The position numbers and the translations under genes were made by a program. A stretch of 13,280 nt of DNA. Source: an uncultured archaeon (GTDB taxonomy: Archaea; Iainarchaeota; Iainarchaeia; Iainarchaeales; 0-14-0-20-30-16). The notes beneath the pieces are model-generated. The model ran no database searches. It was given only the letters and a program-made list of their open reading frames with translations, and was not told where the DNA came from. Shown piece after piece: positions 1-13,280 of this stretch (its first letter is position 1; the number at the start of each line of letters is the position of its first letter). The DNA is taken from contig CAZMCX010000006.1 of NCBI GenBank assembly GCA_964565125.1, forward strand, positions 1-13,280. The letters are read 5' to 3'.

Positions 1-12
1 AAAATATTTATA
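1..12 (+). promoter_or_regulatory. putative archaeal TATA box for the first pilin-like gene
   Basis: AAAATATTTATA lies about 25-30 nt upstream of the ATGs at 30 and 36. This spacing fits archaeal short-leader or leaderless promoters. The background is AT-rich, so specificity is low. Confidence 0.3.
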
Positions 13-29
13 CTACCTTAACATATTTT

Positions 30-227
30 ATGCATATGATTAGTTTTATAAAAGATAACAAAGGACAGTTGTCAGCAGAATTAATTATAATTCTGGCAGC
101 ATTGATTGCAATAGCAGCAATTGTTATAACCCAATTAACAAAAACTACAAATAAGGCTTCTGAAAAAATTGATGCAAAAACAGAAGACATCTTCAATGAT
201 ATTGATAACGTGGGAGATTATAACTAG
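30..227 (+). CDS. small type IV pilin-like protein with class III signal peptide (candidate major pilin)
   Basis: MHMISFIKDNKG|QLSAELIIILAALIAIAAIVI: a short polar leader ends in KG. It is followed by the QxSxE motif of the archaeal 'class III signal peptide' family and a hydrophobic helix of about 22 aa. The mature part is only about 53 aa. Confidence 0.8.
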   Translation: MHMISFIKDNKGQLSAELIIILAALIAIAAIVITQLTKTTNKASEKIDAKTEDIFNDIDNVGDYN

Positions 228-618
228 AATTAAGAAACATGGACAGCTATCAATTGAATTTTTAATTATTCTACTTGTTACTGTTGTGGTAATTTCACTA
301 TTCTTTCCAATTGTTTCAAAAATTTATGATTATACCACAACTACCTTTGACTTGGCAAATATAAAACGGGCAACAAATGAAATGAAAAATATTTGCTTTT
401 TGGGGGATGGAAGTAATTTGGAAATTAAGCTTGTGTTAAACAAAGAATGGGATCTAGAGGCTGATGGAAATAAGATTGTTTGGAGTTCAGAATATTCAAA
501 AAAGAATTATGAAGATTCTATTTGTTTTTATGCTTCCGAAAAAATAAAAAAAGGAAAACATAACCTTGTTTTAGAAAAATCTGGGCCTATTAGCTTAGTC
601 ATAGAAAACAGTGATTGA
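196..618 (+). CDS. type IV pilin-like protein with class III signal peptide
   Basis: MILITWEIITRIKKHG|QLSIEFLIILLVTVVVISLFF has the QxSxE motif with Glu at +5. I prefer the ATG at 196 over the track start at 169, which overlaps the upstream gene by 59 nt. There are exactly two Cys (NICF, SICF) in the C-terminal domain. Confidence 0.75.
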   Translation: MILITWEIITRIKKHGQLSIEFLIILLVTVVVISLFFPIVSKIYDYTTTTFDLANIKRATNEMKNICFLGDGSNLEIKLVLNKEWDLEADGNKIVWSSEYSKKNYEDSICFYASEKIKKGKHNLVLEKSGPISLVIENSD

Positions 619-936
619 AACTTGCTTTTTTTCAAGGCCTTCAAAAAAGATTTCTGATGTTTTTACTATTTTATTTTTGCCTTGCTTTTCGTTTGAAATA
701 CAATCAGAATTTACACAGTATTCGTATCCAAAGTTTTCAAAAAAAGAGTTTAGAATTTCTGCAGAAATAGGAACATGAGAATAAGAGTTCACACGCAGGA
801 CATCATTTGCTTTTTGTAAGGCAAAAACAAAAGAATAATCTTTGCCGGAATAGTTGAAAAATAGAGCCCCAAAAAGTAGAAGAAATACAAGACCAATAAT
901 TATTTCTATAATCCAAAAATATCCTTTTTTAGTCAG
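595..936 (-). CDS. pilin-like protein whose signal peptide and hydrophobic helix lie upstream of the first canonical start (track ORF 595..792)
   Basis: The same frame is open from 942 down to 595 and reads SFLTKKG|YFWIIEIIIGLVFLLLFGALFFNYSGKDYSF...RV(GTG at 792)NSYSH. There is no ATG, GTG or TTG between the in-frame TGA (943-945) and the hydrophobic segment; CTG at 934-936 is the only near-cognate codon. Two Cys are present (YCVNSDC). Confidence 0.45.
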   Translation of the reverse strand: MTKKGYFWIIEIIIGLVFLLLFGALFFNYSGKDYSFVFALQKANDVLRVNSYSHVPISAEILNSFFENFGYEYCVNSDCISNEKQGKNKIVKTSEIFFEGLEKKQVSITVFYD

Positions 937-1276
937 AAAAGATCACCAACTTTAATTCTGCTTTATCTGTATAAACCAATCGAAGTAGGGACATATTTTT
1001 CAGGAGGCCTGTGGCCTCAAGATTGTTTTCCCCTACTTGAAGTTTGTTCGCCATTATTCTTTTTTCCAAGATATTTTTTTCTGCAAATCCGATCCCTTTT
1101 TCATTGTGTTTTGTTACAGCGATTTCGGAATATACCAAAGCAAGTAAAGTTTTGTCTGTTTTTATTGACATTAAATACATTCCAGAAAAGAATAAGAAAA
1201 TAAAAAGCACAAAAAAGAGCATTAAGAATAATGCGGAAAGAGCGAATGACCCTTTAGTTATATTTTGGTTCTGCAT
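929..1276 (-). CDS. pilin-like protein with class III-type signal peptide
   Basis: MQNQNITKG|SFALSALFLMLFFVLFIFLFF. An alternative start at 1312 would add MKTVLFSKRRIC. The gene overlaps the upstream gene's end (1254) and its stop abuts the next ORF. Confidence 0.6.
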   Translation of the reverse strand: MQNQNITKGSFALSALFLMLFFVLFIFLFFSGMYLMSIKTDKTLLALVYSEIAVTKHNEKGIGFAEKNILEKRIMANKLQVGENNLEATGLLKNMSLLRLVYTDKAELKLVIFSD

Positions 1277-1511
1277 ACATATCCTCCTTTTTGAAAAAAG
1301 AACAGTCTTCATTTACCTCAAAATAATTGTAATTTAGACTATTAGAAATTTTACAGTATTGTACATCAATTTTAGAAAAAATAGCATTTGCTTTTGAATT
1401 TATAAATTCATAATCTAAATTAGTTATTAAAATTGCAAAAAGAGAAACTATTGCCAAAAAAATTATTAAAAATTCCATTGTGATTTGGCCTTTAAACAAT
1501 AACTTGTCCAC
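1254..1511 (-). CDS. type IV pilin-like protein with class III signal peptide
   Basis: MDKLLFKG|QITMEFLIIFLAIVSLFAILI has Gln at +1 and Glu at +5. Two Cys (QYCK...EDCS) are spaced about 20 aa apart. The start overlaps the upstream gene's end by 20 nt. Confidence 0.75.
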   Translation of the reverse strand: MDKLLFKGQITMEFLIIFLAIVSLFAILITNLDYEFINSKANAIFSKIDVQYCKISNSLNYNYFEVNEDCSFFKKEDMYAEPKYN

Positions 1512-1944
1512 TATAAACCGCCCCCTGGATTATTAAAACTTTTTTGTCTTTGTTTTCAAGAGTATTCAAAAAAACATATTGATAATTTATGTAGTCTACA
1601 AATTCGACAGAAACTACTTCTATTAATAGTTCAGTTTTAAAATTAGAAACGTCAAAATTTTCTGATGCAAGATATACCCGAATTATTCTGTCACAAGTCA
1701 GTTTTAATGCTTGCCTATTTTGTGTTATAAGCAAGCCCTTTTTTATTGTATTTTCAATAAAAAACGAAACATTGTTTTCAAGAACTGTTTGTTCGGTAAT
1801 GATATTAGAATATTCAACATAATCTTCAACTAGTTTTTGTTCTTTGTAAGAATTATGTGAATAAACAAAGAACAAGGTTAATAGAATTAAAAAAGCAAGA
1901 ATTACAAAATACAATACAAAAAATCCTTTATTCAAGATAATCAA
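1492..1944 (-). CDS. pilin-like protein (minor pilin candidate)
   Basis: MIILNKG|FFVLYFVILAFLILLTLFFV: a KG site followed by a long hydrophobic helix. The start overlaps the stop of the upstream 271-aa gene by 17 nt. Confidence 0.6.
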   Translation of the reverse strand: MIILNKGFFVLYFVILAFLILLTLFFVYSHNSYKEQKLVEDYVEYSNIITEQTVLENNVSFFIENTIKKGLLITQNRQALKLTCDRIIRVYLASENFDVSNFKTELLIEVVSVEFVDYINYQYVFLNTLENKDKKVLIIQGAVYSGQVIV

Positions 1945-2743
1945 AGCTTACATCATTAAATGAGTACCGTTTTGTTCTTATTGTTAAGTTCTTTGGAGAG
2001 TATTCAGACCAGATATCTTTTTCATAGCCCAAATAGTCATTATAATTTTCAGAATTTACTAAATCTATTATTAAAACTCTTTTTTTATGCCTTGTTAACA
2101 CAAATGCATGCCTTGAAAAATCACTTAATTCGACGACATAAACTTTTGTATCATTTCCGCCAAGAGCAATTAAAATAGAACAAACAAGAATAGACAAATC
2201 AAATACATCCCCCGCACTTGCTTCAATTATATCTTTGGGAGCAAGCCAATATTTATTTGATAAGTTTAGATCAGTAATTGTGTAATTTTTTTGCAAATAA
2301 TCATAAAGATTTTTTATTGCAACTAAATAGTCGTTTTCATAATCATAACTTTCCGGCATTATTTCCTGCTTTATACTTAAAACACTCAAATCATTAGGTA
2401 AAACAAGTTTTTTTAGATCTTCCAACCCAAAACTTTGCTCAGGCAGATATTTGTTTATTATTGCTTTTAAAAGTTTATTTTGGATTCCATAATTTTTGTT
2501 TTGGTCTTCATTTTCTTTTAATGCTTCTTTCAAAGTATTTAATTCGTGACGTAATTTTGCAGGATTATTCTGTTGAATGAATTTGACTTTTTCTTTAAGT
2601 ACAAGAATTTCTTTTTCGTATTTTTCTTTTTTTGCAGAATTATTTGTTCTTTTTATTAGATCTTCTGTTTCGGTTATTTTTTTCCAAAGTCTCTGCTCTT
2701 GCTCAAAGAGGGGCAGGTCACTGGGGAGTATTTTTTCAAGCAT
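1928..2743 (-). CDS. cytoplasmic coiled-coil protein with C-terminal transglutaminase-like fold lacking the catalytic Cys
   Basis: There is no signal peptide or TM segment. The N-terminal ~110 aa are Lys/Glu-rich and heptad-like. The C-terminal AGDVFDLSILVCSILIALG...RHAFVL...LIIDL aligns by eye to the transglutaminase-like core G-x-C-x-D-F-A...A-L-G ... H-A-W-V ... D. Val180 (codon 2204-2206) sits at the Cys position, while His212 and Asp227 are retained. Confidence 0.5.
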   Translation of the reverse strand: MLEKILPSDLPLFEQEQRLWKKITETEDLIKRTNNSAKKEKYEKEILVLKEKVKFIQQNNPAKLRHELNTLKEALKENEDQNKNYGIQNKLLKAIINKYLPEQSFGLEDLKKLVLPNDLSVLSIKQEIMPESYDYENDYLVAIKNLYDYLQKNYTITDLNLSNKYWLAPKDIIEASAGDVFDLSILVCSILIALGGNDTKVYVVELSDFSRHAFVLTRHKKRVLIIDLVNSENYNDYLGYEKDIWSEYSPKNLTIRTKRYSFNDVSFDYLE

Positions 2744-2760
2744 TATAAAATATTATGTAG

Positions 2761-2786
2761 AAAGGTATATAAGTTTATATATAAAG
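2761..2786. promoter_or_regulatory. divergent promoter region with two TATA-like boxes
   Basis: TTTATATATAAAG (2774-2786) is about 25 nt upstream of ATG 2805 on the plus strand. TTATATA on the minus strand (2765-2771) is about 25 nt upstream of the minus-strand start at 2743. Confidence 0.35.
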
Positions 2787-2804
2787 CACATAAATTAAGA
2801 TAAT

Positions 2805-3248
2805 ATGCGAATACTTATTACAGGGGTTCCAGGAACTGGGAAAACAACAATTGCAAAAGAACTTTCAAAAGAATTAAAGATACAAGTATATAATATCAAA
2901 AAATTCACAAAGGCAAAGAATGTTAACATTACTAGCTTAAAACAAAGGACTAAAAAAGAATTTAAAGACAAAAAAGACTGGATTTTGGAGGGGCACATCT
3001 TTTGCGAATATAAAACAAACGCTAATTTTGTTTTCTTATTTGACCTTAGCGAAATTAAATTAAGAGAAATTTATAAAAAGAGGAAATATTTGCCTGTAAA
3101 AATAGAAGAAAACATTTTTTGTAAAAATATTAACTATTTTGAAAAGAAACTAAATAAATTTTACAAAAGAGTGTACAAACTAGAGACAAGCAAAGACATT
3201 AAAAAAAATATAAAAGAAATAAAAAGAATATTACAAAAAGAGAAATAG
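2805..3248 (+). CDS. Fap7/AK6-type P-loop nucleoside kinase/NTPase
   Basis: MRILITGVPGTGKTTIAKELSKEL gives a Walker A motif at the extreme N-terminus. The short 147-aa length and the ILEGH motif match the VLDGH motif of archaeal Fap7-like adenylate kinases. Confidence 0.7.
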   Translation: MRILITGVPGTGKTTIAKELSKELKIQVYNIKKFTKAKNVNITSLKQRTKKEFKDKKDWILEGHIFCEYKTNANFVFLFDLSEIKLREIYKKRKYLPVKIEENIFCKNINYFEKKLNKFYKRVYKLETSKDIKKNIKEIKRILQKEK

Positions 3249-3302
3249 GACACCCCTACGCTTTAACCTTAACCACCGCAGGCTCTTTTCACTATCCGTT
3301 AT

Positions 3303-4505
3303 TTATAAGAAAAATTGGTAGTAAATAAAAATTGCCAATAGCACAATTATTATAAAACCAATAATATACAAGGTATAACTATCCACTGATTCTGAGAAAT
3401 AAAATTCTGCACAGTTTAGTTTTTTGATGTTTTCATTAAAGTACATTTCTCCACAAACCTTTTTTGTGTCAAAGTTATCAAAAGAATATTTAAATTCGAG
3501 TTCGTTTATGGCTTTACTAGCCATTGTTATATTATTGTTCATTATTTCCTTATCATCAACTTTTACAAGCAAATTAAACTCTTTCACTTCTGAAGATTTA
3601 TTATAACAGCCAACAGTAATTTCTGCTTTTTCTTTTAAACTATATTCTACTTTACTTATGCTCATTTCACAATCTATGTCATCAAGATAGTTTTTTGCAT
3701 TTACGATTATTGGATTAGATAATTCAACAAATTTGTAATTATCATAAGTATATTCAACTCTTGCAGGAGGAATCAAAAAGTATTTGTCTGTTTTTGATTT
3801 GAAATAATAAGTAATATTTACTGGATTAGTTGTATCTGCCAATCCAATATATGACACTATTCCACCAAGCATTTTTATTTCTGTGTTAACATCAAAGTGG
3901 TTATAAGTTAAGGTAACATTTGCAGGAATATAGCCCTCATTCTCTAATGCTAAACCAACCTTTACTGTTTCGTCAACCAAAAACAATGTTTTCTCTAAAG
4001 ATTTCGAAAAATCTCCTTTTCCAGAGAAGTAAGGCATTTTAAAAGACCCTATTTTTGAACCCGGAAGCATTTCTAATTCATAAACTGAGCCAGAAACATA
4101 CCCGCAGATTTTTAGTTGCAATACATTTTGATCTCTATAATTTTCTAAAAATACAATTGTTCTTCCATTCTGGAAATCTTTAAACTCCAATGTTTCTTTC
4201 ATAAAATATCCTGAAAGCGCCTTATACTTTACTAATTCGTCATTGATATATAACTGCAGATTGCTTTGACTCTCGATTTCTGGAGTAAACTTAATGTATA
4301 GATCTAAAACAAGAATACCTTCATTTGCCTTTAAAAAAGAGTATTTTTCGGGGGAAATATCAAAAGTACTACACAGATTATTAGATTCAAGGGTCGTTTT
4401 AAATGAATTAGAATCAGATAATGCATACGACTGCCCAATCAATTCGGAGAACGACAGAGGCAATAAGCACAAAAATAATATAAAAAATAACACTTTAGTG
4501 AACAT
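3303..4505 (-). CDS. secreted, C-terminally membrane-anchored surface protein (possible beta-sandwich adhesin)
   Basis: A Sec-type signal peptide is present (MFTKVLFFILFLCLLPLSFS|E). A single C-terminal TM follows (YTLYIIGFIIIVLLAIFIYYQFFL). Segments such as TVKVGLALENEGYIPANVTLTY and AEITVGCYNKSSEVKEFNLLVKVDDKEI resemble CARDB-like beta-sandwich strands. Confidence 0.6.
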   Translation of the reverse strand: MFTKVLFFILFLCLLPLSFSELIGQSYALSDSNSFKTTLESNNLCSTFDISPEKYSFLKANEGILVLDLYIKFTPEIESQSNLQLYINDELVKYKALSGYFMKETLEFKDFQNGRTIVFLENYRDQNVLQLKICGYVSGSVYELEMLPGSKIGSFKMPYFSGKGDFSKSLEKTLFLVDETVKVGLALENEGYIPANVTLTYNHFDVNTEIKMLGGIVSYIGLADTTNPVNITYYFKSKTDKYFLIPPARVEYTYDNYKFVELSNPIIVNAKNYLDDIDCEMSISKVEYSLKEKAEITVGCYNKSSEVKEFNLLVKVDDKEIMNNNITMASKAINELEFKYSFDNFDTKKVCGEMYFNENIKKLNCAEFYFSESVDSYTLYIIGFIIIVLLAIFIYYQFFL

Positions 4506-4526
4506 AATATAAATACAGAAACAATG

Positions 4527-4536
4527 TTTTTATATC
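4527..4536. promoter_or_regulatory. single central TATA element shared by two divergent genes
   Basis: TTTTATAT (4528-4535) is centred at 4531.5. That is exactly midway between the minus-strand start (4505) and the plus-strand start (4558), 26.5 nt from each. Confidence 0.35.
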
Positions 4537-4557
4537 TTTTCACATAAAACATATATA

Positions 4558-4902
4558 ATGGCCTACAAAAAGTCGAAAAGATCTAATTTTCAAGAAGTTG
4601 CGAGGGAAAGAATAAATTACCTTCTAAAACTAGTAAATACTGCCAAGGATCCTGTTTTTGCATCTAATTGTGCAAAGCTCATTTCAAAGCTATGTTTAAA
4701 GCACAATATAAGGCTTGAGAAAGATGAAAAAGTTTTTTGTAAATCTTGTTTTTCATGCTTTTCCATAGAAAAGCCAAAAATAAGGATAAAAACCATTAAG
4801 AAACATGGCCAAGAATACCTTCAAAAGAGAATAACATGCATTAAATGCATAAAAACTACTACTAGAAACTATAAAAAAATAAAAAAGAAGAATATGGGCT
4901 AA
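4558..4902 (+). CDS. rnp4: RNase P protein component 4 (Rpp21/Rpr2 family)
   Basis: VARERINYLLKLV is the N-terminal helix motif (compare IAKERIDILFSLA in Pyrococcus Rpp21). A zinc ribbon follows: FCKSCFSCF...IRIK...ITCIKCIKTTTRNY, i.e. CxxC ... CxxC. The protein is basic and 114 aa long. Confidence 0.8.
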   Translation: MAYKKSKRSNFQEVARERINYLLKLVNTAKDPVFASNCAKLISKLCLKHNIRLEKDEKVFCKSCFSCFSIEKPKIRIKTIKKHGQEYLQKRITCIKCIKTTTRNYKKIKKKNMG

Positions 4903-4917
4903 AACAGGCCCTTTGCC

Positions 4918-7900
4918 CTACTTGTTCTTAGGAAATAGTAAGAACAATGCAACCAATATCAATATTATTATTAACGGTGTCATAAACCCAGATGGCAAGA
5001 AGCTACTTGAGCCAGCTGCTGCTGATCCTGTTACAGGCATAATTGGCACTGTTGCTGCTTTTACTGTACTTGTAGTTGTTTGTTCGCCAACGCCCCAGAA
5101 CTTAGATAAAACAACTACTAACACTGCAAGGATAGCAACAGGTATTCCTATTCCCATTCCAAAGCCAATAACTTTGCTAAAAGTTCCACCGCTTGCTGCT
5201 TTTTCTGCACCGCCTTTTTTCTCTTCTTTTTTCTCTTTATCTTCCAGGGCCTTTTTTATCGCCTTGTCTAGATCCTTTTTGGTAAGTTCGCCGTCTTCAC
5301 GCTCGCCAGGTTCTCGTGGAGGCCTTCTTCCATCTTCGCCTTCTTCACCATGGCCTCTCTCGCCCATTTCTACATTCTGTTCATTATGATTACCATATAC
5401 GGGAGGCCAACCACCTGGACCACCAGGCCCATATCCGCCCGGACCATACCCGCCTGGGCCCCAGCCACCCGGGCCACCACCAGCACCGTTTTTAGTAATA
5501 AGTTCTCTTAGTTCATTTATTTGGGCTTGGATTATGTCTGTATCTTCTTTTGTTGCCCCACTTTGAACTAAGGTATCAAGATTTCCTTCCATTCTGGTTA
5601 ATCTGCCATTTAATTCTTCTTGTATTACTCTTCTTAATATATCAGCGATAGCCTGATTATTTGCATCAAGCTTTCCGCCCAATTCATCAAGACGATCAGC
5701 AATAAGTTTAAATGCTTCTCCAATACCTTCAATCCTCTCTTCTTCGCCTTCTGCACGCTCTTCTAATTGCACCCTTAGATCTTCAACTATTTCCTTTATT
5801 TCTTTATCTGTTTCTGTTCCTTTTCCAATTTCATCCAATACTTCAAGAATTTCATCTCTACTATCATCTATCTTCTTATCTAAGTCAGTTAATTTTTTGC
5901 CAAGATCTTCATGCATTTCAGACAACACTGTCAAAACATCTTCTCTACTTTGAACTGTCATTTCTGTAAGATCATCCATCTTCTGGCTCAGCTTATCAAC
6001 AAATTTAGGGTCAAGATCTTTGATTTTTTCAATTACTTTTTCTGCGGCTTTTTGAATTTCTTCCACAGTTAACTCAAGCGCGGCATCAGTATCACCACTA
6101 AGTTTTTCAATACTTTCTTTAACAACTTTATCAAAATGCTCTAATGATAAAAAGTGGCCTTCTAATAAACCCAGGTTCTGTAAAACTTTTGTAGTGTTCT
6201 CGTCAAGAGATTTTACTCTTCTATCTATTTCAAATAAACGGGCATCAAAGATTGTACTCATTGAATCCATTAATTCAAGTTTTGATGTTTCTGCATCTTC
6301 TTTCATAATCTTTAAAGTACCCATTATTTCTTCATGTTGTTCTTTTGAACCTAATTGTTGACTGTTAAGCAGATCATTCAATCTAGTCAACTCTTTGGGA
6401 ACTGTATCTAGATTTTTTACACCCTCAATAATAATATCTTTAATTCCTTTTGTTACTGTTTCTAAATCTGAAATTTGTTGCCTTGTAAGTTTTCCTTCAG
6501 TCTCTATTGTTTTGTCAAATTGTTCTAAGAATTTATTCATTTGATCGGATATCACTTCTATGCCACTAACCACAGTTCTTGACAAATTTTCATCCAAAGC
6601 ATGCACTTGGTTTTTTAAGTCTTCTAAAACAGTTTTTACCTCAGCCACGCTTTTATCCAGATTATTCATTTTTGATCTTGTTAGCTCGGTTATTGCCTTT
6701 TGTAAATCAATTATTTTTCCCAAAACACCTCTATTTGCTCTTACTTCTTCACGAACTCTTTCGATTCTTCTTATCATATCCCTTGGGTCAAGCCCTACTC
6801 TCTCGCCTCTACCTGTTTTTTTTGCAGCCTCAAATTCTTTTTTTGCGAGCTCTTCTTCTCTTCTTACCGCATCTTCAGCAATTGCTTCAGGAGTTGGAGC
6901 AGATAATAATTTTTGTTCAGGACGAGTTCCAGCAGTTAATAATTTTCGTGCTTCCGCAGGGGGCAACATTTTTACGCTTCTGCGGCCTTCAGTGCCAGAT
7001 AATAAATTTGTTTGTAGACCTTGATAATGCCTTAGTCTGTCTTCTAAATATTTAAATGCTGCATCAGGTCCTTCGTTTTCAAAAAATTCTCTAAATCTCG
7101 TATCTTCAATCCTCAAAAGTCTTTCAGCTTCTTTGGGCCCAAACTTATCAACTAAATTTTCTAATTTTCTAACTAACACCAAATATTTTTTCTCTTTATC
7201 TGGACCAAAAACTACTTTTCTTGCCCTTGTTTCCCTAGCTAATTCTAATCTCTGGCCCTCGGTTGATTGTTTAGGGGTAAGTCTTACAACAAGGCCAGTT
7301 ATTCTGTCAGTATACTTTCGTAATTCATTATAAAGACCTTTAACATATCGCACATCAAGCATTTTTGGCCTGCCAAGCAGTTGAAGCCTTCTTGTTGTAT
7401 CAGACATAAATTCTTCAATTTGCATTTTTAGTTGACCCAATGCTTGCCTTTTTTCATCCATGCTTCTTTTACTATTACCTATTTCCATCATAGTTCGTTC
7501 TAATTTTACAGGTAGAAATTTTGACATTTCGTCCAACAGTTTTGCATTCCTATCGGGTTCTTTCATTAATTCGAAAAATCTTTCAAACATAAATTTTGGC
7601 GGCTCTTTGTCCCACTTTTCTTGCATTACTTTTAAAGATGCCTGTTCAGAAGACTTTACTTGTTTTGTAACTACCCCCCTTGCTCTTGCGGATATCACAT
7701 CTCTTAACCTATCAAGTTCAACTGCTTGATCTTTTGACATTTCTCTAACTCTTGTTTTCATTATTATATCTATTTTTCTGGTTAATTCAACAAGTAAGTT
7801 ATTACCTTCCGCAGACACGCCTTTAGATTTTATAAAAAGGAATTCTTGTTTAATTTCATCTAATACTTCTCCGATATTTTTTTGTCCAGTTTTTACTCGT

Positions 7901-8430
7901 TCCATTTGTACTCTCGAAAGTTCTCTCTGTCTTTCTATTTTTTGCGGACTTTCCGTTCTTACGCCCTTTGCCTGTTCCAAAGACATTTTTCTACTTCTTT
8001 CCAAATCCGCAGCACGTCTTGAGCTTATTAGGTCTTTAATTTTATTTGCTGTTTCTTCTAAGACTCTTAATTGCTTCGCAAATACTTCTTTTTTGCCTTT
8101 TTTTGCTTTATTGTATTTTTTAGAAAGCCCTTTAAGTTTTTCAGCAACTCTAGAATATTCTTTATTTAAATCAGAAACAGACAATCGTTCAAGTTTTGTG
8201 TGGTATGTGTCTATACTTGTTCTGGCCTTCACTGCTTTTTTTATAATTCGTGGGCTTACTCTTTCAATACCTTTTCTAATCCCAAAACGACCTTTGGCTT
8301 CAAGCCCTTTCTTAGCAAAGCCTTCTCTTTCTTTGCCAATTTTTTTTTCAGGCTTAACAATGGATCCCTGGTCTCTTGCTCTTTTTTCCATAGCAGCTCT
8401 TTCAACAGCAACATTTCTCCTTATAGCCAT
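4918..8430 (-). CDS. giant (~1170 aa) coiled-coil protein with a basic N-terminal half, acidic C-terminal half, GPGG[Y/W] repeat and C-terminal two-TM hairpin; family unknown
   Basis: This is one uninterrupted ORF. I prefer the ATG at 8430 to the GTG at 8439 (MAIRRNVAVERAAMEK). There is no signal peptide. The C-terminus carries VIGFGMGIGIPVAILAVLVVVLS and TPLIIILILVALFLLF, flanked by Lys residues. No Walker A/B motifs were seen. Confidence 0.85.
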   Translation of the reverse strand: MAIRRNVAVERAAMEKRARDQGSIVKPEKKIGKEREGFAKKGLEAKGRFGIRKGIERVSPRIIKKAVKARTSIDTYHTKLERLSVSDLNKEYSRVAEKLKGLSKKYNKAKKGKKEVFAKQLRVLEETANKIKDLISSRRAADLERSRKMSLEQAKGVRTESPQKIERQRELSRVQMERVKTGQKNIGEVLDEIKQEFLFIKSKGVSAEGNNLLVELTRKIDIIMKTRVREMSKDQAVELDRLRDVISARARGVVTKQVKSSEQASLKVMQEKWDKEPPKFMFERFFELMKEPDRNAKLLDEMSKFLPVKLERTMMEIGNSKRSMDEKRQALGQLKMQIEEFMSDTTRRLQLLGRPKMLDVRYVKGLYNELRKYTDRITGLVVRLTPKQSTEGQRLELARETRARKVVFGPDKEKKYLVLVRKLENLVDKFGPKEAERLLRIEDTRFREFFENEGPDAAFKYLEDRLRHYQGLQTNLLSGTEGRRSVKMLPPAEARKLLTAGTRPEQKLLSAPTPEAIAEDAVRREEELAKKEFEAAKKTGRGERVGLDPRDMIRRIERVREEVRANRGVLGKIIDLQKAITELTRSKMNNLDKSVAEVKTVLEDLKNQVHALDENLSRTVVSGIEVISDQMNKFLEQFDKTIETEGKLTRQQISDLETVTKGIKDIIIEGVKNLDTVPKELTRLNDLLNSQQLGSKEQHEEIMGTLKIMKEDAETSKLELMDSMSTIFDARLFEIDRRVKSLDENTTKVLQNLGLLEGHFLSLEHFDKVVKESIEKLSGDTDAALELTVEEIQKAAEKVIEKIKDLDPKFVDKLSQKMDDLTEMTVQSREDVLTVLSEMHEDLGKKLTDLDKKIDDSRDEILEVLDEIGKGTETDKEIKEIVEDLRVQLEERAEGEEERIEGIGEAFKLIADRLDELGGKLDANNQAIADILRRVIQEELNGRLTRMEGNLDTLVQSGATKEDTDIIQAQINELRELITKNGAGGGPGGWGPGGYGPGGYGPGGPGGWPPVYGNHNEQNVEMGERGHGEEGEDGRRPPREPGEREDGELTKKDLDKAIKKALEDKEKKEEKKGGAEKAASGGTFSKVIGFGMGIGIPVAILAVLVVVLSKFWGVGEQTTTSTVKAATVPIMPVTGSAAAGSSSFLPSGFMTPLIIILILVALFLLFPKNK
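5401..5487 (-). repeat. in-frame Gly/Pro/aromatic tandem repeat (about 15-nt period) encoding GAGGGPGGWGPGGYGPGGYGPGGPGGWPP
   Basis: The plus strand reads ggaccaccaggccca tatccgcccggacca tacccgcctgggccc cagccacccgggcca. This is the highest-GC stretch in the window and encodes pentapeptide units GPGG[W/Y]. Confidence 0.85.
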
Positions 8431-8440
8431 AACACACACC

Positions 8441-8459
8441 CTATATAAATATATATTTT
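8441..8459 (-). promoter_or_regulatory. possible internal TATA box ahead of the giant gene
   Basis: The minus strand reads AAAATATATATTTATATAG about 12-29 nt upstream of ATG 8430, within the 48-nt spacer after the upstream stop (8479-8481). The two genes may equally be co-transcribed. Confidence 0.3.
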
Positions 8460-8478
8460 GTTATCTTTTTATTCCTTT

Positions 8479-9084
8479 CTAAAAATGATTTCTACTTTCG
8501 TACTTAGATCCTGACGATCCAAGTATAAACAAAATTCCCAACAAAACGATCGCAAATATTAGCATTTCCCCATTGCCTTTACTTGACAGAACATCTTTAG
8601 TTACAAAAAACAACAAAGCAAACATTATAACAACAAAAAAGCCAAGCCTCATATTGCTATTTGACAATAAATTAGTCAAAATCCCGTGCTTGTGTTCATG
8701 GCCCGAAACAAAAGATTCTCTCCCCCTATATTCTTCAAGCCCTTCATTAGATTCCTCGCCCGCAAAAGGATTTGTTTTATCTGTTTCTTTTCTTTTTTTT
8801 TCGTTTTCATCTTCCATTTTATTATAATTTGGCTCTTTCTTTTTTGATTTTGGGGATTTATCTAACTCCTCATCTGTTTGCTTATCTGTTTTTACTTTTA
8901 GTTTTTTAATAAGTGTAAAAAATTCGTTTTTTTCTAAATCTCCATTTTGATATGCTTTTTTTATTTCTTTTTCAATAACTCGGGGTGGGTCATTCTCTTT
9001 TTTTACCCGCTCTAAAAATTGGGCATATTTACTTCTTGGCCTTGGTGTTTTTGCCCTTAATTTTCTTCCAGATTCAAAAACCAT
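8479..9084 (-). CDS. small charged cytoplasmic protein with C-terminal two-TM hairpin; unknown function
   Basis: The N-terminal 140 aa are Lys/Glu-rich (RKLRAKTPRPRSKYAQFLERVKKEN...). A possible SHOCT-like helix pair is present (IKKAYQNGDLEKNEFFTLIKKLK). Two TM helices follow: LGFFVVIMFALLFFVT and MLIFAIVLLGILFILG. Confidence 0.65.
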   Translation of the reverse strand: MVFESGRKLRAKTPRPRSKYAQFLERVKKENDPPRVIEKEIKKAYQNGDLEKNEFFTLIKKLKVKTDKQTDEELDKSPKSKKKEPNYNKMEDENEKKRKETDKTNPFAGEESNEGLEEYRGRESFVSGHEHKHGILTNLLSNSNMRLGFFVVIMFALLFFVTKDVLSSKGNGEMLIFAIVLLGILFILGSSGSKYESRNHF

Positions 9085-9116
9085 ATAAACTACCTACAAA
9101 ATATTTTACTACAATC

Positions 9117-9130
9117 AATTATATAAAAAG
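9117..9130 (+). promoter_or_regulatory. putative TATA box for the XPD gene
   Basis: AATTATATAAAAAG is centred about 27 nt upstream of ATG 9152, in the 67-bp divergent spacer. Confidence 0.35.
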
Positions 9131-9151
9131 AGTATATTTATATATGTATCC

Positions 9152-10960
9152 ATGACAAAAATTTACTTTCGGCACGACAACTACAGGGAAGAGCAAAATA
9201 CTCTTGTAAAAGACATCGCAAAAGTCTTACAAGAAAACAAGACTGGGTTGTTCGAAGCGCCCACAGGGCTAGGAAAAACAGATGCGGCTCTTGCAACTGC
9301 AATTTCTTATACTGAAAAAAAAACTATTTTCTTTGTTACTCCAAAAACTTCACAACACAAAATTGCTCTAGATGTTGTCAAAGGTTTAAACCGGAAATAT
9401 TCTCTTGATCTAAAAGCAGTAAACATACTCGGTAAGCAAAAAATGTGCTCAGAAATTCCGCTTATGAACAATGCGCGCGGATTTTATGAATTCTGCGAAA
9501 GCAAAATAAGAAGCAATAATTGCCCCGCATATAAAAATTTTAAAAATAAAAGTTATAACAAAAATATATTTCTGGAAAATGAATTAAGTGCAGAAGATAT
9601 TCTTGAATTTGGAATTGGAAACAAAGTTTGCCCTTATGAATTAGCAATTGAGCTATCAAAAAAAGCAAATATAATAATTTGCGATTATAATTATCTTTTC
9701 AACAGCAAGATCAGGGAAGCATTTTTTCAAAAAACTGGAAAAGAATTGGGAGACAGCATAATAATTGTAGATGAGGCACACAATTTGGCGGATAGAATCA
9801 GGTCGAATTCATTTTATGTCTTGAATAAAAAAATGATTTTACAGGCAATAAAAGAAGCGGACAGTATTGACAATAAAGAATTTTGGGAATTATCCGACAA
9901 ATTAAGAAAAGTTTCAGAACTTTTTAAAGAAAAATACAAAGACAAAGAATTTTTGGTAGACAAAGATTTGTTCAAAGACATTTTACTAAAATTTGAGGAA
10001 CTTCCAGACTTGGAAACTGAACATTTGAAAGAAATTGCAAAAAAAACAAAAAGCGGAGAATTAATCCTGCCATACGTTTATTCTTTTTTCTCAAATTGGT
10101 TTGAAAACCACAAATCAATTATTAGATTTTTCAAAACAGAAAATGAAAAAGATTATAATTTAGTTTTAAAATATTTAGATCCATCTTTTGTAACAAAAAC
10201 TGTTTTTGAAAATGCAAATTCTGCAATCTTAATGTCGGGAACTCTTTCACCGTTCAAAATGTATGTTGATATTCTTGGACTACCAAAAGATACCCTTTGT
10301 TTTAAATACAACAGCCCGTTTCCAAAAGAAAATAAATTGGTAATGTATGATGATTCTTTTAGCACAAAATATGAATTAAGAAATAGCCATGATTTGGAAG
10401 AAATAAGCAGTAAAATTGCAACTATAATAAACAATATTTCCGGGAATGTTGCTGTATTTTTGCCGTCACATAGACAAGCATCAGAGTTTTATAACTCACT
10501 TACAAGAAAGACAGCAAAAAAGATTTACCTGCAAGACAAAAATGCACAAAAATCAAAAAAGATTGTAGAAGATTTCAAAAAATCACGGGGATTAGGGTCC
10601 GTACTTGTGGGCGTCCTTGGCGGCTCATTTTCAGAGGGTTTAGATTTCCCTGGAGAAGAGCTCGTAGGGGTTTTCATCTTAGGAATTCCATTTCCAGAAC
10701 CAACATTAGAAATTAAGGAATTAATAAAATATTATGATGAAAGATTTGCAAATGGCTGGAATTATGGATATACATATCCAACAATTTCAAAAGTTGTGCA
10801 GGCAACAGGAAGAGTAATAAGAACATACACAGACAGAGGATTTGTTGTATTAATAGATCAAAGATATACTTGGAAGAAATATTCTAATTTGTTACCTGAT
10901 GATTTGAGACCAAACACTTTAATGTCAAGTAAGTTAATTGAAAGCTTTTTCAATAATTAG
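9152..10960 (+). CDS. xpd: XPD/Rad3-family 5'-3' DNA helicase with 4Fe-4S cluster domain
   Basis: Walker A is EAPTGLGKTDAAL and the DEAH box is IIVDEAHNL. Four Cys lie between them (KMCSE, EFCES, NNCPA, KVCPYE), as in the XPD Fe-S domain. The C-terminal motif VI is QATGRVIRTYTDRGFVVLIDQRY. At 602 aa the length is typical of archaeal XPD. Confidence 0.88.
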   Translation: MTKIYFRHDNYREEQNTLVKDIAKVLQENKTGLFEAPTGLGKTDAALATAISYTEKKTIFFVTPKTSQHKIALDVVKGLNRKYSLDLKAVNILGKQKMCSEIPLMNNARGFYEFCESKIRSNNCPAYKNFKNKSYNKNIFLENELSAEDILEFGIGNKVCPYELAIELSKKANIIICDYNYLFNSKIREAFFQKTGKELGDSIIIVDEAHNLADRIRSNSFYVLNKKMILQAIKEADSIDNKEFWELSDKLRKVSELFKEKYKDKEFLVDKDLFKDILLKFEELPDLETEHLKEIAKKTKSGELILPYVYSFFSNWFENHKSIIRFFKTENEKDYNLVLKYLDPSFVTKTVFENANSAILMSGTLSPFKMYVDILGLPKDTLCFKYNSPFPKENKLVMYDDSFSTKYELRNSHDLEEISSKIATIINNISGNVAVFLPSHRQASEFYNSLTRKTAKKIYLQDKNAQKSKKIVEDFKKSRGLGSVLVGVLGGSFSEGLDFPGEELVGVFILGIPFPEPTLEIKELIKYYDERFANGWNYGYTYPTISKVVQATGRVIRTYTDRGFVVLIDQRYTWKKYSNLLPDDLRPNTLMSSKLIESFFNN

Positions 10961-11388
10961 TCAAATTTTATTTTTTTCTTTAAGATATTTTTCAACCACA
11001 ATTCTTAAATTTTTTGCATCTAAAAGCAGATTATTCACTATCTGTTTATCGATTCGTTTGTAATTATATTGCAGTTCTTCTCTAGCTATTCGATAAGTTT
11101 GGCCTGTTCGCCCATAATAATTTAAATCTCCATCAAAATAATCAATTAAATATTGGAAGATACAAAAATGGCTTCTTTCACGAAGATTGTTTGCATATAA
11201 CACAGCACGAGCATAGCGCATATATTCCAAATAGCCCACAACTAACACTGAATCCATTTCACCTAAGTCATAAATTTTTTTGCTTGACCAATAAACTCAT
11301 CGCCAGCGATCAATTCTTTTTCTAATATTTCTTTACTAATAATTGCTGGTTGAACCAATTTTTTGTCTACACAGGTATCAAATTTCAT
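10961..11388 (-). pseudogene. HEPN-domain toxin partner of the upstream MNT, split by a frameshift at an A7 run (pseudogene, homopolymer error, or programmed -1 frameshift)
   Basis: Fragment 1 (11388->11263) reads MKFDTCVDKKLVQPAIISKEILEKELIAGDEFIGQAKKFMT*. Fragment 2 (11257->10961) reads MDSVLVVGYLEYMRYARAVLYANNLRERSHF... A -1 shift at the A7 run (11275-11281) joins them as ...GQAKKIYDLGEMDSVLVVGYLEY... The joined ~140-aa product has a HEPN-like helical pattern. Its ATG overlaps the MNT stop as ATGA (11385-11388). Confidence 0.55.
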
Positions 11389-11963
11389 AAATCTTCACCG
11401 TAAATTTTTACGCCGTTTTTTACTTCTTTTAGGTAAGCAGAGTTATAATTTTTTCTATAGTCAAGCGAGGAATATATTACCAATTGGATCTCTCTGTCAG
11501 GAATTGCTTTTGAAAAGAGATCTAAAAGTTTTGTATAGTCTTTTGTTTTTTCTTTATTAAGGAGCAATACAAAGATATCAACGTCGCTTTTTTTATCAAA
11601 GTTCCCTTTAGCACAACTACCATATAAATACACTGAAATAACTCTGTTTTCAAAATTTTCAAAAGCGTTTTCTGTTTCCTTTGAAATTAAAGAATATGGG
11701 AATATTAACTTTTTTAACTGAATAATCAAATTATTTTCTTCATTTATTTGATAAAGGTGGCTCTTTCCAATAATTTCTTTTTCCAGCAAGCCATCTTCTA
11801 AAAAAGATTTACAACAAAGTTCTGCAGAACGAGGAGCAATATTGTTCTTACGGGCAAGTTCATTAAGAGAAAATTTTTCTCCAGTATGTGCAATTAGAAA
11901 AAATAAAAGATTAATTCCCACATAATTTTTGAAATTAGTTATCATATAATTAATTATATACAT
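11385..11963 (-). CDS. winged-HTH fused to a minimal nucleotidyltransferase (MNT) domain, antitoxin-type
   Basis: The N-terminus FSLNELARKNNIAPRSAELCCKSFLEDGLLEKEIIGKSHLYQIN looks like a wHTH. The NTase signature is VYLYGSCAKGNFDKKSDVDIFVLL (GS-x-A-x-G...D-x-D). The true start may be the second Met at 11945. Confidence 0.8.
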   Translation of the reverse strand: MYIINYMITNFKNYVGINLLFFLIAHTGEKFSLNELARKNNIAPRSAELCCKSFLEDGLLEKEIIGKSHLYQINEENNLIIQLKKLIFPYSLISKETENAFENFENRVISVYLYGSCAKGNFDKKSDVDIFVLLLNKEKTKDYTKLLDLFSKAIPDREIQLVIYSSLDYRKNYNSAYLKEVKNGVKIYGEDL

Positions 11964-11994
11964 ATATCTTTAAAAATATGATGTTAAGGGGGAT

Positions 11995-12372
11995 CTAAGG
12001 AAAAAACCTGTTGCCATATAAGTCAAAAACAGCAATAGGATCATTTGGTCTTTTTTTCAGCATCCCTTTTGTAAATCCAGCCAACACTTTCGGATCCCAA
12101 TGCATAACTTGGACTGCATATAGTTTTTGATCAGGGTTTAAACGACCCCAATTATAATCTAGATGCCCGCTATGTTCGTATTTTTTTCTACCATACAATT
12201 GTTCCCAAAACAAATCTTGTCTTTCGGTCCTTTTTTCGGTTCTAAGTCTTTTTTGTTCTGCGACTTTACTCCCAGAATAGTCAGTTACATTCATATCATA
12301 ACTTGTCATTTCGTGCCTATCACTTGGCGTAAATGGTTTTTTAGTTGGTCGTGGTTCTCTTACTTTATGCAT
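11995..12372 (-). CDS. hypothetical protein, 125 aa, soluble, basic N-terminus, Trp/His/Tyr-rich C-terminal half
   Basis: This is a clean ORF with short spacers to its neighbours on the same strand. I recognise no motif (…LFWEQLYGRKKYEHSGHLDYNWGRLNPDQKLYAVQVMHWDPKVLAGF…). There is no TM segment or signal peptide. Confidence 0.6.
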   Translation of the reverse strand: MHKVREPRPTKKPFTPSDRHEMTSYDMNVTDYSGSKVAEQKRLRTEKRTERQDLFWEQLYGRKKYEHSGHLDYNWGRLNPDQKLYAVQVMHWDPKVLAGFTKGMLKKRPNDPIAVFDLYGNRFFP

Positions 12373-12408
12373 AATATAAAAAGAGTTAATTTATTTTTAA
12401 TTATTTCT

Positions 12409-13221
12409 TTACAAAACAAGCACAGATAAAATAACCCCAAACAGCAAGAAGGGGCCGAAAACTGGGAGGTTTCTGTAAACTATGACTTCTGCTACTTTGC
12501 TTTCTTTTAGTTTTGCCAGCAACTTTTTATCAAACAGTTTTGTGCCGGATTTGCCCAAGCATTGCATATCCACAACATCATCTTCTAGAATTTTATCAAC
12601 TTTTACTTTATGTGAAAAATCCAAATAAAAGTATTTCTGGAAAAGCAATACAAACAGGCAGACAAACAATAAAAGGGCCGCAAAAATAGAAATTTCAACT
12701 CGATATGTAATAGTCAAGAAAAAGCCGCTTGCAAGGCCAACTAATAATGCTGCAAAGAAGTATAAAATTGTTTTTGGAATTCCTGCATCCAAATAATATT
12801 TTTTTGAAAAGAAAGAGTAAAAGAATTTAAATCCGAAAAACAAACCAGCAGATGCAGCGGCAACAAAAAATACAGGCAAAATAAATACAAATTTGCCAGA
12901 CATTGGAATAAGTAAGCAAAGGCCCATAAAATATTTTATATCTCCACCGCCAATTTTTCCGTACCTATAAAGTGGATAAAAAATAACAAAAATTGCTGCA
13001 GCAGAAATAAGCCCAATATACCACGAACTCTTAAACGGAAGCAGAATAATTCCCATAATAATCATAGGATAAGTTATCCAGTCATAAATATAGGTTGTTT
13101 TATAATCAAAATATGCAGCAAGAGATGAAAAGAAAACAGTTAATCCAATTGAGATAAGCATAACTATATCCATTTCTTCACAACCACAATATCTGTCAAA
13201 GCTTTGTACACCTTTTTTCAT
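12409..13221 (-). CDS. A24-family aspartic prepilin/preflagellin peptidase (PibD/EppA/FlaK-like)
   Basis: The protein is polytopic. The first catalytic-Asp region is AAYFDYKTTYIYDWITYP and the second motif is KIGGGDIKYFMGLCLL (GxGD). A soluble insert of about 55 aa (DFSHKVKVDKILEDDVVDMQCLGKSG...VIVYRNLP) precedes the last TM. The start could instead be at 13173 (MDIVMLIS). Confidence 0.85.
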   Translation of the reverse strand: MKKGVQSFDRYCGCEEMDIVMLISIGLTVFFSSLAAYFDYKTTYIYDWITYPMIIMGIILLPFKSSWYIGLISAAAIFVIFYPLYRYGKIGGGDIKYFMGLCLLIPMSGKFVFILPVFFVAAASAGLFFGFKFFYSFFSKKYYLDAGIPKTILYFFAALLVGLASGFFLTITYRVEISIFAALLLFVCLFVLLFQKYFYLDFSHKVKVDKILEDDVVDMQCLGKSGTKLFDKKLLAKLKESKVAEVIVYRNLPVFGPFLLFGVILSVLVL

Positions 13222-13280
13222 AAGATTTTATTTGTCTTTTCTTCACACATTTTTTTTACTTGATTAAAACAGGTTCTTTT

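Follow-up and report, generated by a model that had tools for sequence, protein, structure and literature searches.

Long, mostly helical cytoplasmic proteins that hang from a membrane by their extreme C terminus are familiar from other domains of life. This report concerns a protein predicted to be of that general kind, the product of gene B, and the product of its upstream neighbor, gene A, both encoded in a 13,280-nucleotide (nt) stretch of DNA from an uncultured archaeon of the lineage Iainarchaeota (contig CAZMCX010000006.1, positions 1 to 13,280; referred to below as the window). Golgins such as giantin and golgin-84 resemble B in that they have no signal peptide and carry ~1000+ cytoplasmic, mostly helical residues on an extreme C-terminal anchor; the distal end of a golgin captures a partner. 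Golgins differ in having a single transmembrane (TM) segment and canonical heptad coiled coils, are eukaryotic, and show no sequence or fold match to B, whereas the anchor of B is a hairpin of two helices with a conserved loop, and its gene has an obligate neighboring partner. The KASH-domain nesprins of the LINC complex are alike by analogy: a giant cytoplasmic helical rod is followed by a C-terminal TM segment and then by a conserved extracytoplasmic peptide of ~30 to 40 residues. However, B returns via a second, near-invariant TM helix, has no known SUN-like partner, and is not homologous to these proteins; spectrin repeats were not detected in B by Pfam searches.

Several prokaryotic systems offer further points of comparison. 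CdvA, an archaeal ESCRT-recruiting, membrane- and DNA-binding coiled-coil protein that has no TM hairpin, resembles B in being an archaeal membrane-associated helical protein. ZorA of the Zorya system likewise has a membrane-anchored long cytoplasmic helical tail. Proteins with PGF-CTERM or PEF-CTERM signals share with B a Ser/Thr-rich stretch that leads to a motif, then to a hydrophobic helix, and finally to a basic tail at the very C terminus. The product of gene A compares best with the SHOCT-domain membrane proteins, with which it shares a short amphipathic bi-helical motif (L..AY..G.I...E(F/Y)..L...L) and TM segments, although in A the motif lies N-terminal to the TM segments instead of at the C terminus. 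For SHOCT-like domains, a role in the anchoring or assembly of proteins on the inner side of the membrane has been proposed (PMC11237479; PMC3581485).

The B family itself has no characterized relatives by sequence or predicted fold, and no description of it was found in the literature on membrane coiled-coil proteins of DPANN archaea and Diapherotrites. The new elements are a hairpin anchor common to divergent rods, an obligate hairpin partner, and a distribution confined to a small clade of DPANN archaea, organisms whose cells are tiny, whose genomes are reduced, and whose cell biology is, to our knowledge, almost wholly uncharacterized.

Reading frame and conservation of gene B

4918 to 8430, reverse strand: gene B, 1170 amino acids (aa), with its ATG at 8430 and stop codon at 4918 to 4920 (list of open reading frames and translation)

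The longest open reading frame (ORF) of the window extends from 4918 to 8439 on the reverse strand and begins with a GTG (1173 aa). Three codons past this GTG lies the ATG at 8430, which is the start in all relatives (MAIRR, MAVRR, or MAVVRR); orthologs P0001 to P0004 share the same initial Met. The length of 1170 aa is adopted because of this conserved start, and the coordinates 4918 to 8430 given in the preliminary description of the window, a note made from the sequence alone, proved exact. Residue numbers below refer to the 1170-aa protein; the GTG translation runs 3 higher.

A copy of gene B at 99% identity is found on independent ENA and JGI assemblies (P0001/L003 and L009), and orthologs at 65%, 49%, and 37% identity are included in alignment A4. 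P0002 comes from an NCBI metagenome-assembled genome (MAG) named “Candidatus ainarchaeum sp.,” P0003 from a JGI contig, and P0004 (also P0014) from a MAG labeled “uncultured archaeon.” The name of the P0002 genome, together with that of a near-identical copy of the A protein (same 90%-identity cluster), “Candidatus Diapherotrites archaeon,” identifies the source as a DPANN archaeon, in line with the small archaeon of the preliminary description.

In comparison with the Iainarchaeum ortholog (L001), the ratio of nonsynonymous to synonymous substitution rates (dN/dS) of B is 0.26 overall, at a dS of ~1, and falls to 0.14 in residues 1 to 155, 0.08 in residues 276 to 375, and 0.07 in residues 711 to 775. 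Between the window and L001, the flanking genes are 80 to 93% identical, compared with just 62% for B and 70% for its upstream neighbor A; therefore, A and B evolve faster than their surroundings, in mosaic fashion. Judged by these comparisons, gene B is a real, selectively constrained gene and no chance ORF, because a frame of 1170 codons is maintained in DNA of ~29% G+C, orthologs lie on independent contigs, and dN/dS is 0.26. The homologs on independent assemblies and the same ratio also exclude an assembly chimera or artifact, and the case of a chimeric orphan that the preliminary description had allowed for does not arise, as homologs exist.

The G+C content of the window is ~27 to 32%, and over gene B it is 31 to 49%, with a strong purine bias on the coding strand. 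The maximum, up to 0.49 at 5001 to 5500 in a genome of ~0.29, is caused by the Gly, Pro, Glu, and Arg codons of B. The same codon content explains an antisense ORF at 4913 to 5389 (forward strand, 158 aa), which was dismissed as spurious. At 5075 to 5100 (residues ~1110 to 1118 of B, at the junction of TM1 and the loop), the window reads SKFWGVGEQTTT versus SKIFGGGQTTTT in the near-identical L003 and L009. A frameshift at the window-specific FWGVGEQ was ruled out, as this is an equal-length cluster of substitutions; it may reflect strain variation or a local assembly error. Scans of the window for tRNAs, Rfam families, and tandem repeats returned nothing relevant.

Domain layout of B

8218 to 8430, reverse strand: residues 1 to 71, basic Lys/Arg/Gly-rich N-terminal tail, predicted disordered and highly conserved

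6991 to 8217, reverse strand: residues 72 to 480, basic all-alpha multi-helix domain (AlphaFold sub-model)

6787 to 6990, reverse strand: residues 481 to 548, Pro/charged linker from the basic to the acidic part, poorly conserved

5476 to 6786, reverse strand: residues 549 to 985, acidic amphipathic-helix region with x-L-D-x landmarks (charge, AlphaFold, and periodicity)

5401 to 5475, reverse strand: residues 986 to 1010, GPGG[W/Y] low-complexity block (sequence)

5176 to 5400, reverse strand: residues 1011 to 1085, charged disordered spacer, with an acidic Gly/Glu/Arg/Pro part followed by a Lys/Glu part

5098 to 5166, reverse strand: residues 1089 to 1111, TM1, with a Gly-rich start GxGxGIP and the end LSK (hydropathy and alignment A2)

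4987 to 5097, reverse strand: residues 1112 to 1148, Ser/Thr/Ala-rich loop with the motif V-P-x-x-P-V-x-G (nine-member alignment A2)

4921 to 4986, reverse strand: residues 1149 to 1170, TM2 and basic tail (MTPLIIILILVALFLLFPKNK), near-invariant family signature

This layout bears out the order of parts that the preliminary description had read from the translation, namely, no N-terminal signal peptide or TM segment, a Lys/Arg-rich helical part of ~590 residues, an acidic helical part, a GPGG[Y/W] block, a hyper-charged spacer (here placed at 1011 to 1085), and two C-terminal TM helices around a Ser/Thr/Ala-rich loop of ~40 residues with Lys on the outer flanks. By hydropathy, there is no signal peptide or N-terminal hydrophobic segment in B before residue 1086; the Kyte-Doolittle mean over 19-aa windows exceeds 1.6 only within residues 1083 to 1116 and 1141 to 1170, that is, in the C-terminal ~90 residues. 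Residues 1 to 587 have an isoelectric point (pI) of 10.14 and a net charge of +49 and are all-alpha in the AlphaFold models, whereas residues 588 to 985, also predicted to be helical, have a pI of 4.54 and a net charge of -38. Charged residues make up 36% of B, and its sequence contains neither Cys residues nor a Walker A motif.

The N-terminal tail has a net charge of +7 per 50 aa, and its predicted local distance difference test (pLDDT) values are below 50 at residues 1 to 13 and 15 to 71. Residues 32 to 77 are almost wholly invariant between the window and P0002, and the combination of disorder with a conserved Lys/Arg/Gly composition suggests a specific polyanionic partner. The linker has low pLDDT at 475 to 518 and 535 to 547 and only 35% identity, with indels, to P0002. 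The GPGG[W/Y] block (GGGPGGWGPGGYGPGGYGPGGPGGWPP, residues 984 to 1010) is shared by the four close orthologs and by no distant member of the family. It is 96% identical to P0002, with a dN/dS of 0.015 at a dS of 1.26 (versus L001): a silk- or elastin-like GPGG pentapeptide block that is of low complexity yet under very strong purifying selection. The acidic part of the charged spacer has a pI of 4.6. In the hairpin, TM1 is followed by a loop of ~37 aa and by TM2, which spans residues ~1149 to 1166; the protein ends in PKNK, Lys residues are also found ahead of TM1, and AlphaFold places helices at 1096 to 1110 and 1150 to 1165.

The C-terminal anchor and the extent of the family

An exhaustive phmmer search with B over 1.84 billion representative proteins (E ≤ 0.001) produced 11 hits, four of which are full-length orthologs. 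P0006, P0007, P0008, P0010, and P0012 (135 to 759 aa) match only residues ~1033 to 1168 of B, and P0005, P0009, and P0011 were rejected as low-complexity artifacts. The anchor of B is thus a shared module that also forms the end of otherwise unrelated helical proteins of 630 to 760 aa. Word-index searches retrieved 2 proteins with the C-terminal profile and 6 with the profile of A. Scans with back-translated patterns located the anchor module in only 2 GTDB species genomes and in 5 metagenome loci, all from the same clade, and in no viral contig.

Alignment of the C termini of nine family members (A2) reveals a common layout: a Lys/Glu-rich spacer, an aromatic/Gly-rich TM1, a loop of 34 to 41 aa with the V-P-x-x-P-V-x-G motif, and a last helix with the consensus (I/M)(N/T)PLII(I/V)LILxxLFLLFPK(x)K. 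Ten of the 13 invariant columns fall in the last 19 residues; in the loop, the Pro and Gly residues P60, G63, and G76 are invariant. The Lys/Glu-rich stretch ahead of TM1 is found in all family members, and two Lys residues stand among the last 3 to 5 positions in 9 of 9. TM2 of B is 100% identical to that of P0002, and the close and distant groups match each other in hhalign with a probability of 99.5% (E 9e-23). The C-terminal hairpin, previously proposed from a single translation, is real and is the best-conserved part of the protein across the family.

Upstream of the anchor, the picture is different. P0006 carries four 101-aa repeats there, which remained unmatched in the query family (hhalign probability ≤ 7%). 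In each of the eight members compared, the first ~100 aa are basic, and the basic-then-acidic polarity is kept in the four close orthologs, P0007, and P0012. As aligned here, the hairpin is a modular, near-invariant anchor, and the cytoplasmic part upstream of it has been replaced, or has diverged beyond recognition, between lineages.

Gene A and the A-B cassette

8479 to 9084, reverse strand: gene A, 201-aa partner with a basic N terminus, SHOCT-like helix, charged linker, and C-terminal TM hairpin

8890 to 8976, reverse strand: residues 37 to 65 of A, SHOCT-like helix (IEKEIKKAYQNGDLEKNEFFTLIKKLKVK), pattern conserved in alignment A3

8509 to 8649, reverse strand: residues 146 to 192 of A, TM hairpin with a short loop, holding most of the invariant columns of A3

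8431 to 8478, reverse strand: A-B intergenic spacer, 48 nt, with a TATA-like TTTATATA and a Shine-Dalgarno (SD)-like GGTG upstream of the ATG of B

The A protein, like B, has no signal peptide and places a large, highly charged N-terminal part ahead of its hairpin; its basic N terminus carries Pro-flanked Lys/Arg residues. Its hairpin follows the pattern R..FFV...LLFFVTK...LIF.IV..G..FI.G, in which R146, F150, V151, L157, L158, T162, I187, and G192 are invariant in A3. The hairpins of A and B were considered as paralogs and rejected as such (hhalign probability of 4.5%). The A family is as rare as the B family, with 6 clusters. A 206-aa A homolog from JGI (P0028) bears the source name “magnesium-transporting ATPase (P-type),” which looks like a misannotation.

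A homolog of A is found directly upstream of B, on the same strand, in 9 of the 9 loci examined (the window, L001, L004, L010, L006, L008, L007, L014, and the P0029 contig), which answers the question, raised in the preliminary description, of whether the 201-aa upstream gene is conserved alongside. Alignments A2 and A3 and the synteny agree in pairing the anchor of B with an upstream A hairpin homolog in these nine loci. An SD-like GGTG or GAGG 7 to 10 nt before the ATG of B and a TATA-like element are present in all 8 loci with DNA available; these elements are compatible with either co-transcription or an internal promoter. On the evidence of alignment and gene order, A and B are a conserved two-gene cassette, restricted to a narrow low-GC group of DPANN archaea (Diapherotrites/Iainarchaeum-like).

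The cassette probably has a structural role needed by the cell, because it is conserved and constrained, lies amid housekeeping genes, and includes, in B, one of the largest proteins in these genomes. The combination of a near-invariant anchor with a freely diverging rod provides a concrete handle for experiments. The very narrow distribution of the cassette, a handful of MAGs, limits its general importance.

Structure models and searches for relatives

The AlphaFold model of full-length B has a mean pLDDT of 53.7 and a predicted template modeling score (pTM) of 0.25; it is all-alpha outside the N-terminal tail, the GPGG block, and the charged leash. The sub-model of residues 58 to 482 has a mean pLDDT of 76.4 and comprises ~16 helices, mostly of 12 to 46 residues. 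As modeled, the basic half is a multi-helix domain and no single long coiled coil; at a pTM of 0.34, its arrangement must be taken as elongated or uncertain. Foldseek searches with this model returned nothing significant in PDB (best E of 0.75) or BFVD (best E of 0.038).

The acidic region is modeled as helices of 16 to 58 residues broken by Gly/Pro, with pLDDT of ~45 to 78. Its hydrophobic periodicity is strong and peaks at 3.55 to 3.67, with no clean 3.5, which departs from the “heptad-like” helices of the preliminary description. The acidic half could form antiparallel bundles or segmented coiled coils of amphipathic helices, and these models give bundles of helices the same likelihood as a single long rod because the helices are so interrupted. 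The name “coiled-coil protein,” given to B earlier, is only partly apt: it does not suit the ~16 helices of the basic half, and the acidic half consists of segmented helices for which bundles are as likely.

All nine x-L-D-x landmarks noted earlier in the acidic half (NNLDKS, HALDEN, KNLDTV, KSLDEN, KDLDPK, TDLDKK, DRLDEL, GKLDAN, and GNLDTL) are present, and there is one more. LD dipeptides are modestly enriched there (10 observed versus 5.0 expected, P = 0.017; P ~0.001 with polar flanks). Their spacing is irregular, and neither self-BLAST nor hhalign of six sub-blocks found internal repeats in B, so that the landmarks stand but their interpretation as degenerate helical repeats is not supported.

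Pfam, NCBIfam, PHROGs, and PADLOC were searched with whole B, its three thirds, its C-terminal 30 to 98 aa, and the orthologs. There was no significant match, just sub-threshold coiled-coil-type matches on the helical acidic region, namely, to FlaC_arch, Baculo_PEP_C, Apolipoprotein, Dynamin_M, tape-measure PHROGs, and the ZorA tail. Searches of PDB sequences, whether started from the single sequence or from profiles A3, A4, and A5, gave nothing better than E 3e-4, and the matches to HPt, coronavirus HR1/HR2, and designed helical proteins were judged compositional. The coronavirus S2 HR1/HR2 fusion-core constructs match residues 540 to 657 (E 0.0019), which is read as a likeness to a polar-core coiled coil.

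Specific families fared no better. FlaC_arch scored 21.6 bits on residues 589 to 637 versus a gathering cut-off of 27.8, and there are no adjacent arl/fla genes, so B does not qualify as an archaellum FlaC/D/E protein. An SMC/Rad50-like identity finds no Walker A motif and no SMC, Rad50, or AAA domain in Pfam or NCBIfam, and MukB appears just in Foldseek at E >1. For a methyl-accepting chemotaxis protein, neither MCPsignal (PF00015) nor HAMP was detected on the acidic half at E up to 10, and the TM segments are C-terminal. Pfam and NCBIfam searches found no S-layer domains in B, which also lacks the signal segment of a secreted protein. The best tape-measure match, phrog_167 (E 5e-4, 18.8 bits), covers only the helical region, and the neighbors are housekeeping genes. 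None of the families that the preliminary description had singled out as potentially fatal to its reading (SMC-like, chemotaxis, S-layer, tape-measure) was confirmed over B, and its statement that no family could be named holds across Pfam, NCBIfam, PHROGs, PADLOC, PDB, and Foldseek.

Topology and proposed mechanism

The architecture and topology of B can be assigned with high confidence. The sequence can reasonably be read in only one orientation, N-in with >1000 aa in the cytoplasm, because there is no signal peptide and the 1085-aa N-terminal part is 36% charged. Hydropathy, the AlphaFold helices, and the basic tail place B in the topological class of hairpin-anchored cytoplasmic membrane proteins, with the orientation inferred. 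The preliminary description had derived the same orientation from the positive-inside rule; the cytoplasmic bulk is upheld by the absence of a signal peptide and the charged 1085 aa, but the charge rule itself is weak here, with 2 to 3 Lys/Arg in the loop.

What B and A do is a more tentative matter. In the proposed mechanism, both proteins would insert N-in/C-in, and their hairpins would assemble in the membrane as a fixed A-B (or higher-order) anchor. The invariance of the hydrophobic residues of TM2 argues for a specific intramembrane interface, with the hairpin of A as the most economical candidate for the partner. B would project ~1085 residues from this anchor into the cytoplasm. Nearest the membrane would be a flexible leash made of the Lys/Glu spacer, the acidic spacer, and the GPGG[W/Y] block; beyond it, an acidic helical-bundle or coiled-coil rod; and outermost, the basic multi-helix head with the conserved Lys/Arg/Gly tail at its end. 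The basic head would dock a polyanionic cytoplasmic partner, in the first place nucleic acid (nucleoid DNA or ribosomal/ribonucleoprotein RNA) and alternatively anionic lipid or the acidic rod of a neighboring B, and the SHOCT-like helix of A would provide membrane-proximal assembly. The A-B pair would thereby act as a membrane-to-cytoplasm tether or cortical scaffold.

Taken as a whole, the statement that the pair is a lineage-restricted, membrane-anchored cytoplasmic tether or scaffold is plausible but tentative, and the part of it that concerns the ligand and function of B is doubtful. The binding of nucleic acid, the pairing of the two halves, and a role in division or cell contact, all raised in the preliminary description, are likewise guesses. 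Several points weigh against it. The loop has 2 to 3 Lys/Arg, with a conserved Lys/Arg right after TM1, and the hairpin may not span the membrane fully. Contact between A and B is suggested only by adjacency and the co-conservation of the hairpins, and ligand binding by charge alone. The SHOCT assignment of A comes from a single weak match (one of 6 members in Pfam, E 0.0019). The basic/acidic polarity is blurred in P0006 and P0010. The full-length model is too poor (pLDDT 53.7, pTM 0.25) to define rod length, oligomeric state, or inter-domain contacts. Domain and PDB profile searches detected no known nucleic-acid-binding domain in B and no homology to any protein with known function.

If the tether idea is true, the cassette would show how a minimal archaeal cell organizes its cytoplasm relative to the membrane. 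In its most far-reaching form, which is unlikely, A and B would be a new prokaryotic tethering system, with an invariant two-protein hairpin anchor, an exchangeable lineage-specific rod, and a basic head by which the nucleoid or the ribosomes are kept at the membrane in ultra-small DPANN cells. Such a system would be a functional analog, built of unrelated parts, of the eukaryotic tail-anchored tethers or LINC/KASH connectors.

Alternative explanations

A self-assembling cortical cytoskeleton or division scaffold is an unlikely alternative. The protein would polymerize under the membrane, for example, head to tail via its charged halves or through coiled coils, with a function in cell shape or division comparable to that of CdvA or the bacterial coiled-coil-rich proteins. 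The opposite charges of the two halves (+49 and -38) come close to balance, and the close orthologs conserve them, but the polarity is not kept in all distant members. B has long amphipathic helices and weak matches to FlaC_arch and to HR1-type coiled coils of coronaviruses (E 0.0019); against this, the variability of the rod argues against a conserved polymer lattice. The link to CdvA comes from P0006, whose repeats, when summed, reach 30.4 bits versus a cut-off of 30 for the Pfam CdvA coiled-coil family (PF18822). However, no single stretch of P0006 passes that threshold, and B itself has no PF18822 match, no PRC barrel, and no ESCRT-III-binding tail, so it is no member of the CdvA family; there are also no division genes nearby.

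It is quite unlikely that TM2 and the basic tail form a C-terminal sorting signal read by an archaeosortase, exosortase, or rhombosortase-like enzyme. TM1 would then place the Ser/Thr loop outside, the enzyme would cleave TM2 and possibly add a lipid, and the mature anchor would consist of TM1 and the modified C terminus. The extreme C terminus of B is indeed tripartite, as a small-residue/Pro motif (PSGFMTP or GSINP) is followed by a hydrophobic helix and then by a basic tail, and it has a Ser/Thr-rich stretch just upstream of TM2, as do PGF-CTERM glycoproteins upstream of their C-terminal signal. The near-invariance of TM2 across otherwise unrelated proteins is also what would be expected of a recognition signal, but it extends to the hydrophobic residues themselves, which is atypical for sorting signals. 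Two weak PEF-CTERM matches (16.3 and 15.4 bits) both lie under the curated TIGR cut-off of 23 bits and fall mainly on the hydrophobic helix, leaving the signature motif uncovered; PGF-CTERM and GlyGly-CTERM remained unmatched with E allowed to reach 10. A genome that uses a known sorting signal has many paralogous substrates marked by it, whereas each confirmed occurrence of the TM2 pattern is a positional ortholog of B, one per locus, in only 2 GTDB genomes. Known substrates are also secreted with N-terminal signal peptides, unlike B, which has none and whose bulk is predicted to be cytoplasmic; it was not assigned to the PGF-CTERM/PEF-CTERM group.

A transmembrane envelope connector similar to LINC/KASH, in which the V-P-x-x-P-V-x-G loop would bind an envelope component or a neighboring cell and so couple the surface to the rod, is very unlikely. 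The loop motif is conserved family-wide, but the loop is short (34 to 41 aa), lacks a recognizable binding domain and N-glycosylation sequons, and is only predicted to be exposed. Envelope-type neighbors do exist: two genes away in the close group lies the gene for a conserved protein of 400 aa that has a signal-like N terminus and a C-terminal TM segment; in the distant group, genes for a polytopic membrane protein and for a protein of 119 aa that has a TM segment and an OB-like signature flank the cassette; and the window contains pilin-like genes and a prepilin peptidase. However, these neighbors differ between the close and distant groups, and there is no conserved external partner.

The idea that B is a mobile-element or defense protein, with a tape-measure-like or Zorya ZorA-like tail, can practically be dismissed: the matches behind it (tape-measure PHROG, E 5e-4, 18.8 bits; phrog_3590, E 3.5e-5; PADLOC ZorA2, E 4e-4, 17 bits; and LmuB, E 1.5e-7 for P0006) are weak and all lie in the helical region, as is typical of coiled-coil cross-matches (for ZorA, 16 to 17 bits on residues 768 to 958, indicating coiled-coil similarity only), no viral contig encodes the module, Foldseek against BFVD gave nothing at E ≤ 0.001, there is no MotA/ExbB channel domain, ATPase, Walker A motif, or neighboring ZorB/C/D, and all loci share a stable syntenic housekeeping context.

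Genomic neighborhood

4558 to 4902, forward strand: Rpr2-like RNase P protein gene, 114 aa, Cys-rich, convergent with B

L006 6488 to 7048, L008 6578 to 7297, and L007 393 to 1109: distant-group polytopic protein gene

L006 10147 to 10506, L008 9908 to 10267, and L014 2727 to 3086: distant-group 119-aa protein gene

The neighbors of the cassette across loci are housekeeping genes (XPD, Rpr2, SRP54, tRNA synthetases, TopA, Elp3, MutS/L, and L15e), with no mobile or defense genes among them. Besides A, the Rpr2-like gene is the only neighbor common to the close and distant loci. Its product in the window has no significant Pfam match itself and is 37 to 47% identical to those of genes in L006, L008, and L014; the L006 and L008 counterparts carry PF04032 (Rpr2, RNase P subunit), weakly so in L008.

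Two genes from B, at 3303 to 4505 (reverse strand), is the gene for the 400-aa protein with a signal-peptide-like N terminus and a C-terminal TM segment. Neither Pfam nor NCBIfam has a family that matches this protein, which is 85% conserved in L001, is found near the cassette in L004 and L010, and is absent from the distant-group loci. In the distant group, one flank of the cassette is occupied by the polytopic membrane protein (186 to 239 aa), which has the motif NQSIIIDE and whose gene is divergent from A, and the other by the 119-aa protein, with an N-terminal TM segment and a weak OB-fold signature. No Pfam family scored above threshold with either flank protein, and both could belong to the same system as the cassette.

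Small pilin-like genes and a prepilin peptidase (Peptidase_A24, E 3e-15) lie at 169 to 1944 and 12409 to 13221. The pilin-like genes show a weak ComGD-like match, with weak Class_IIIsignal matches on the L003 orthologs. Taken with the peptidase, they suggest that a type IV pilus-like surface apparatus is encoded around the cassette. A minimal nucleotidyltransferase (MNT) of 192 aa (Polbeta/NTP_transf_2) is encoded at 11385 to 11963 (reverse strand); MNT genes in a housekeeping context are typical of DPANN archaea (PMC6393860). The adjacent stretch at 11995 to 12372 (reverse strand), which is slightly richer in G+C, encodes a basic protein of 125 aa that belongs to no family. Finally, a 271-aa protein encoded at 1928 to 2743 (reverse strand) is 93% conserved in L001 and, given its weak transglutaminase-like and CEP76 peptidase-like matches (E 5e-4, below the cut-off), may be a protein of the cysteine protease fold.

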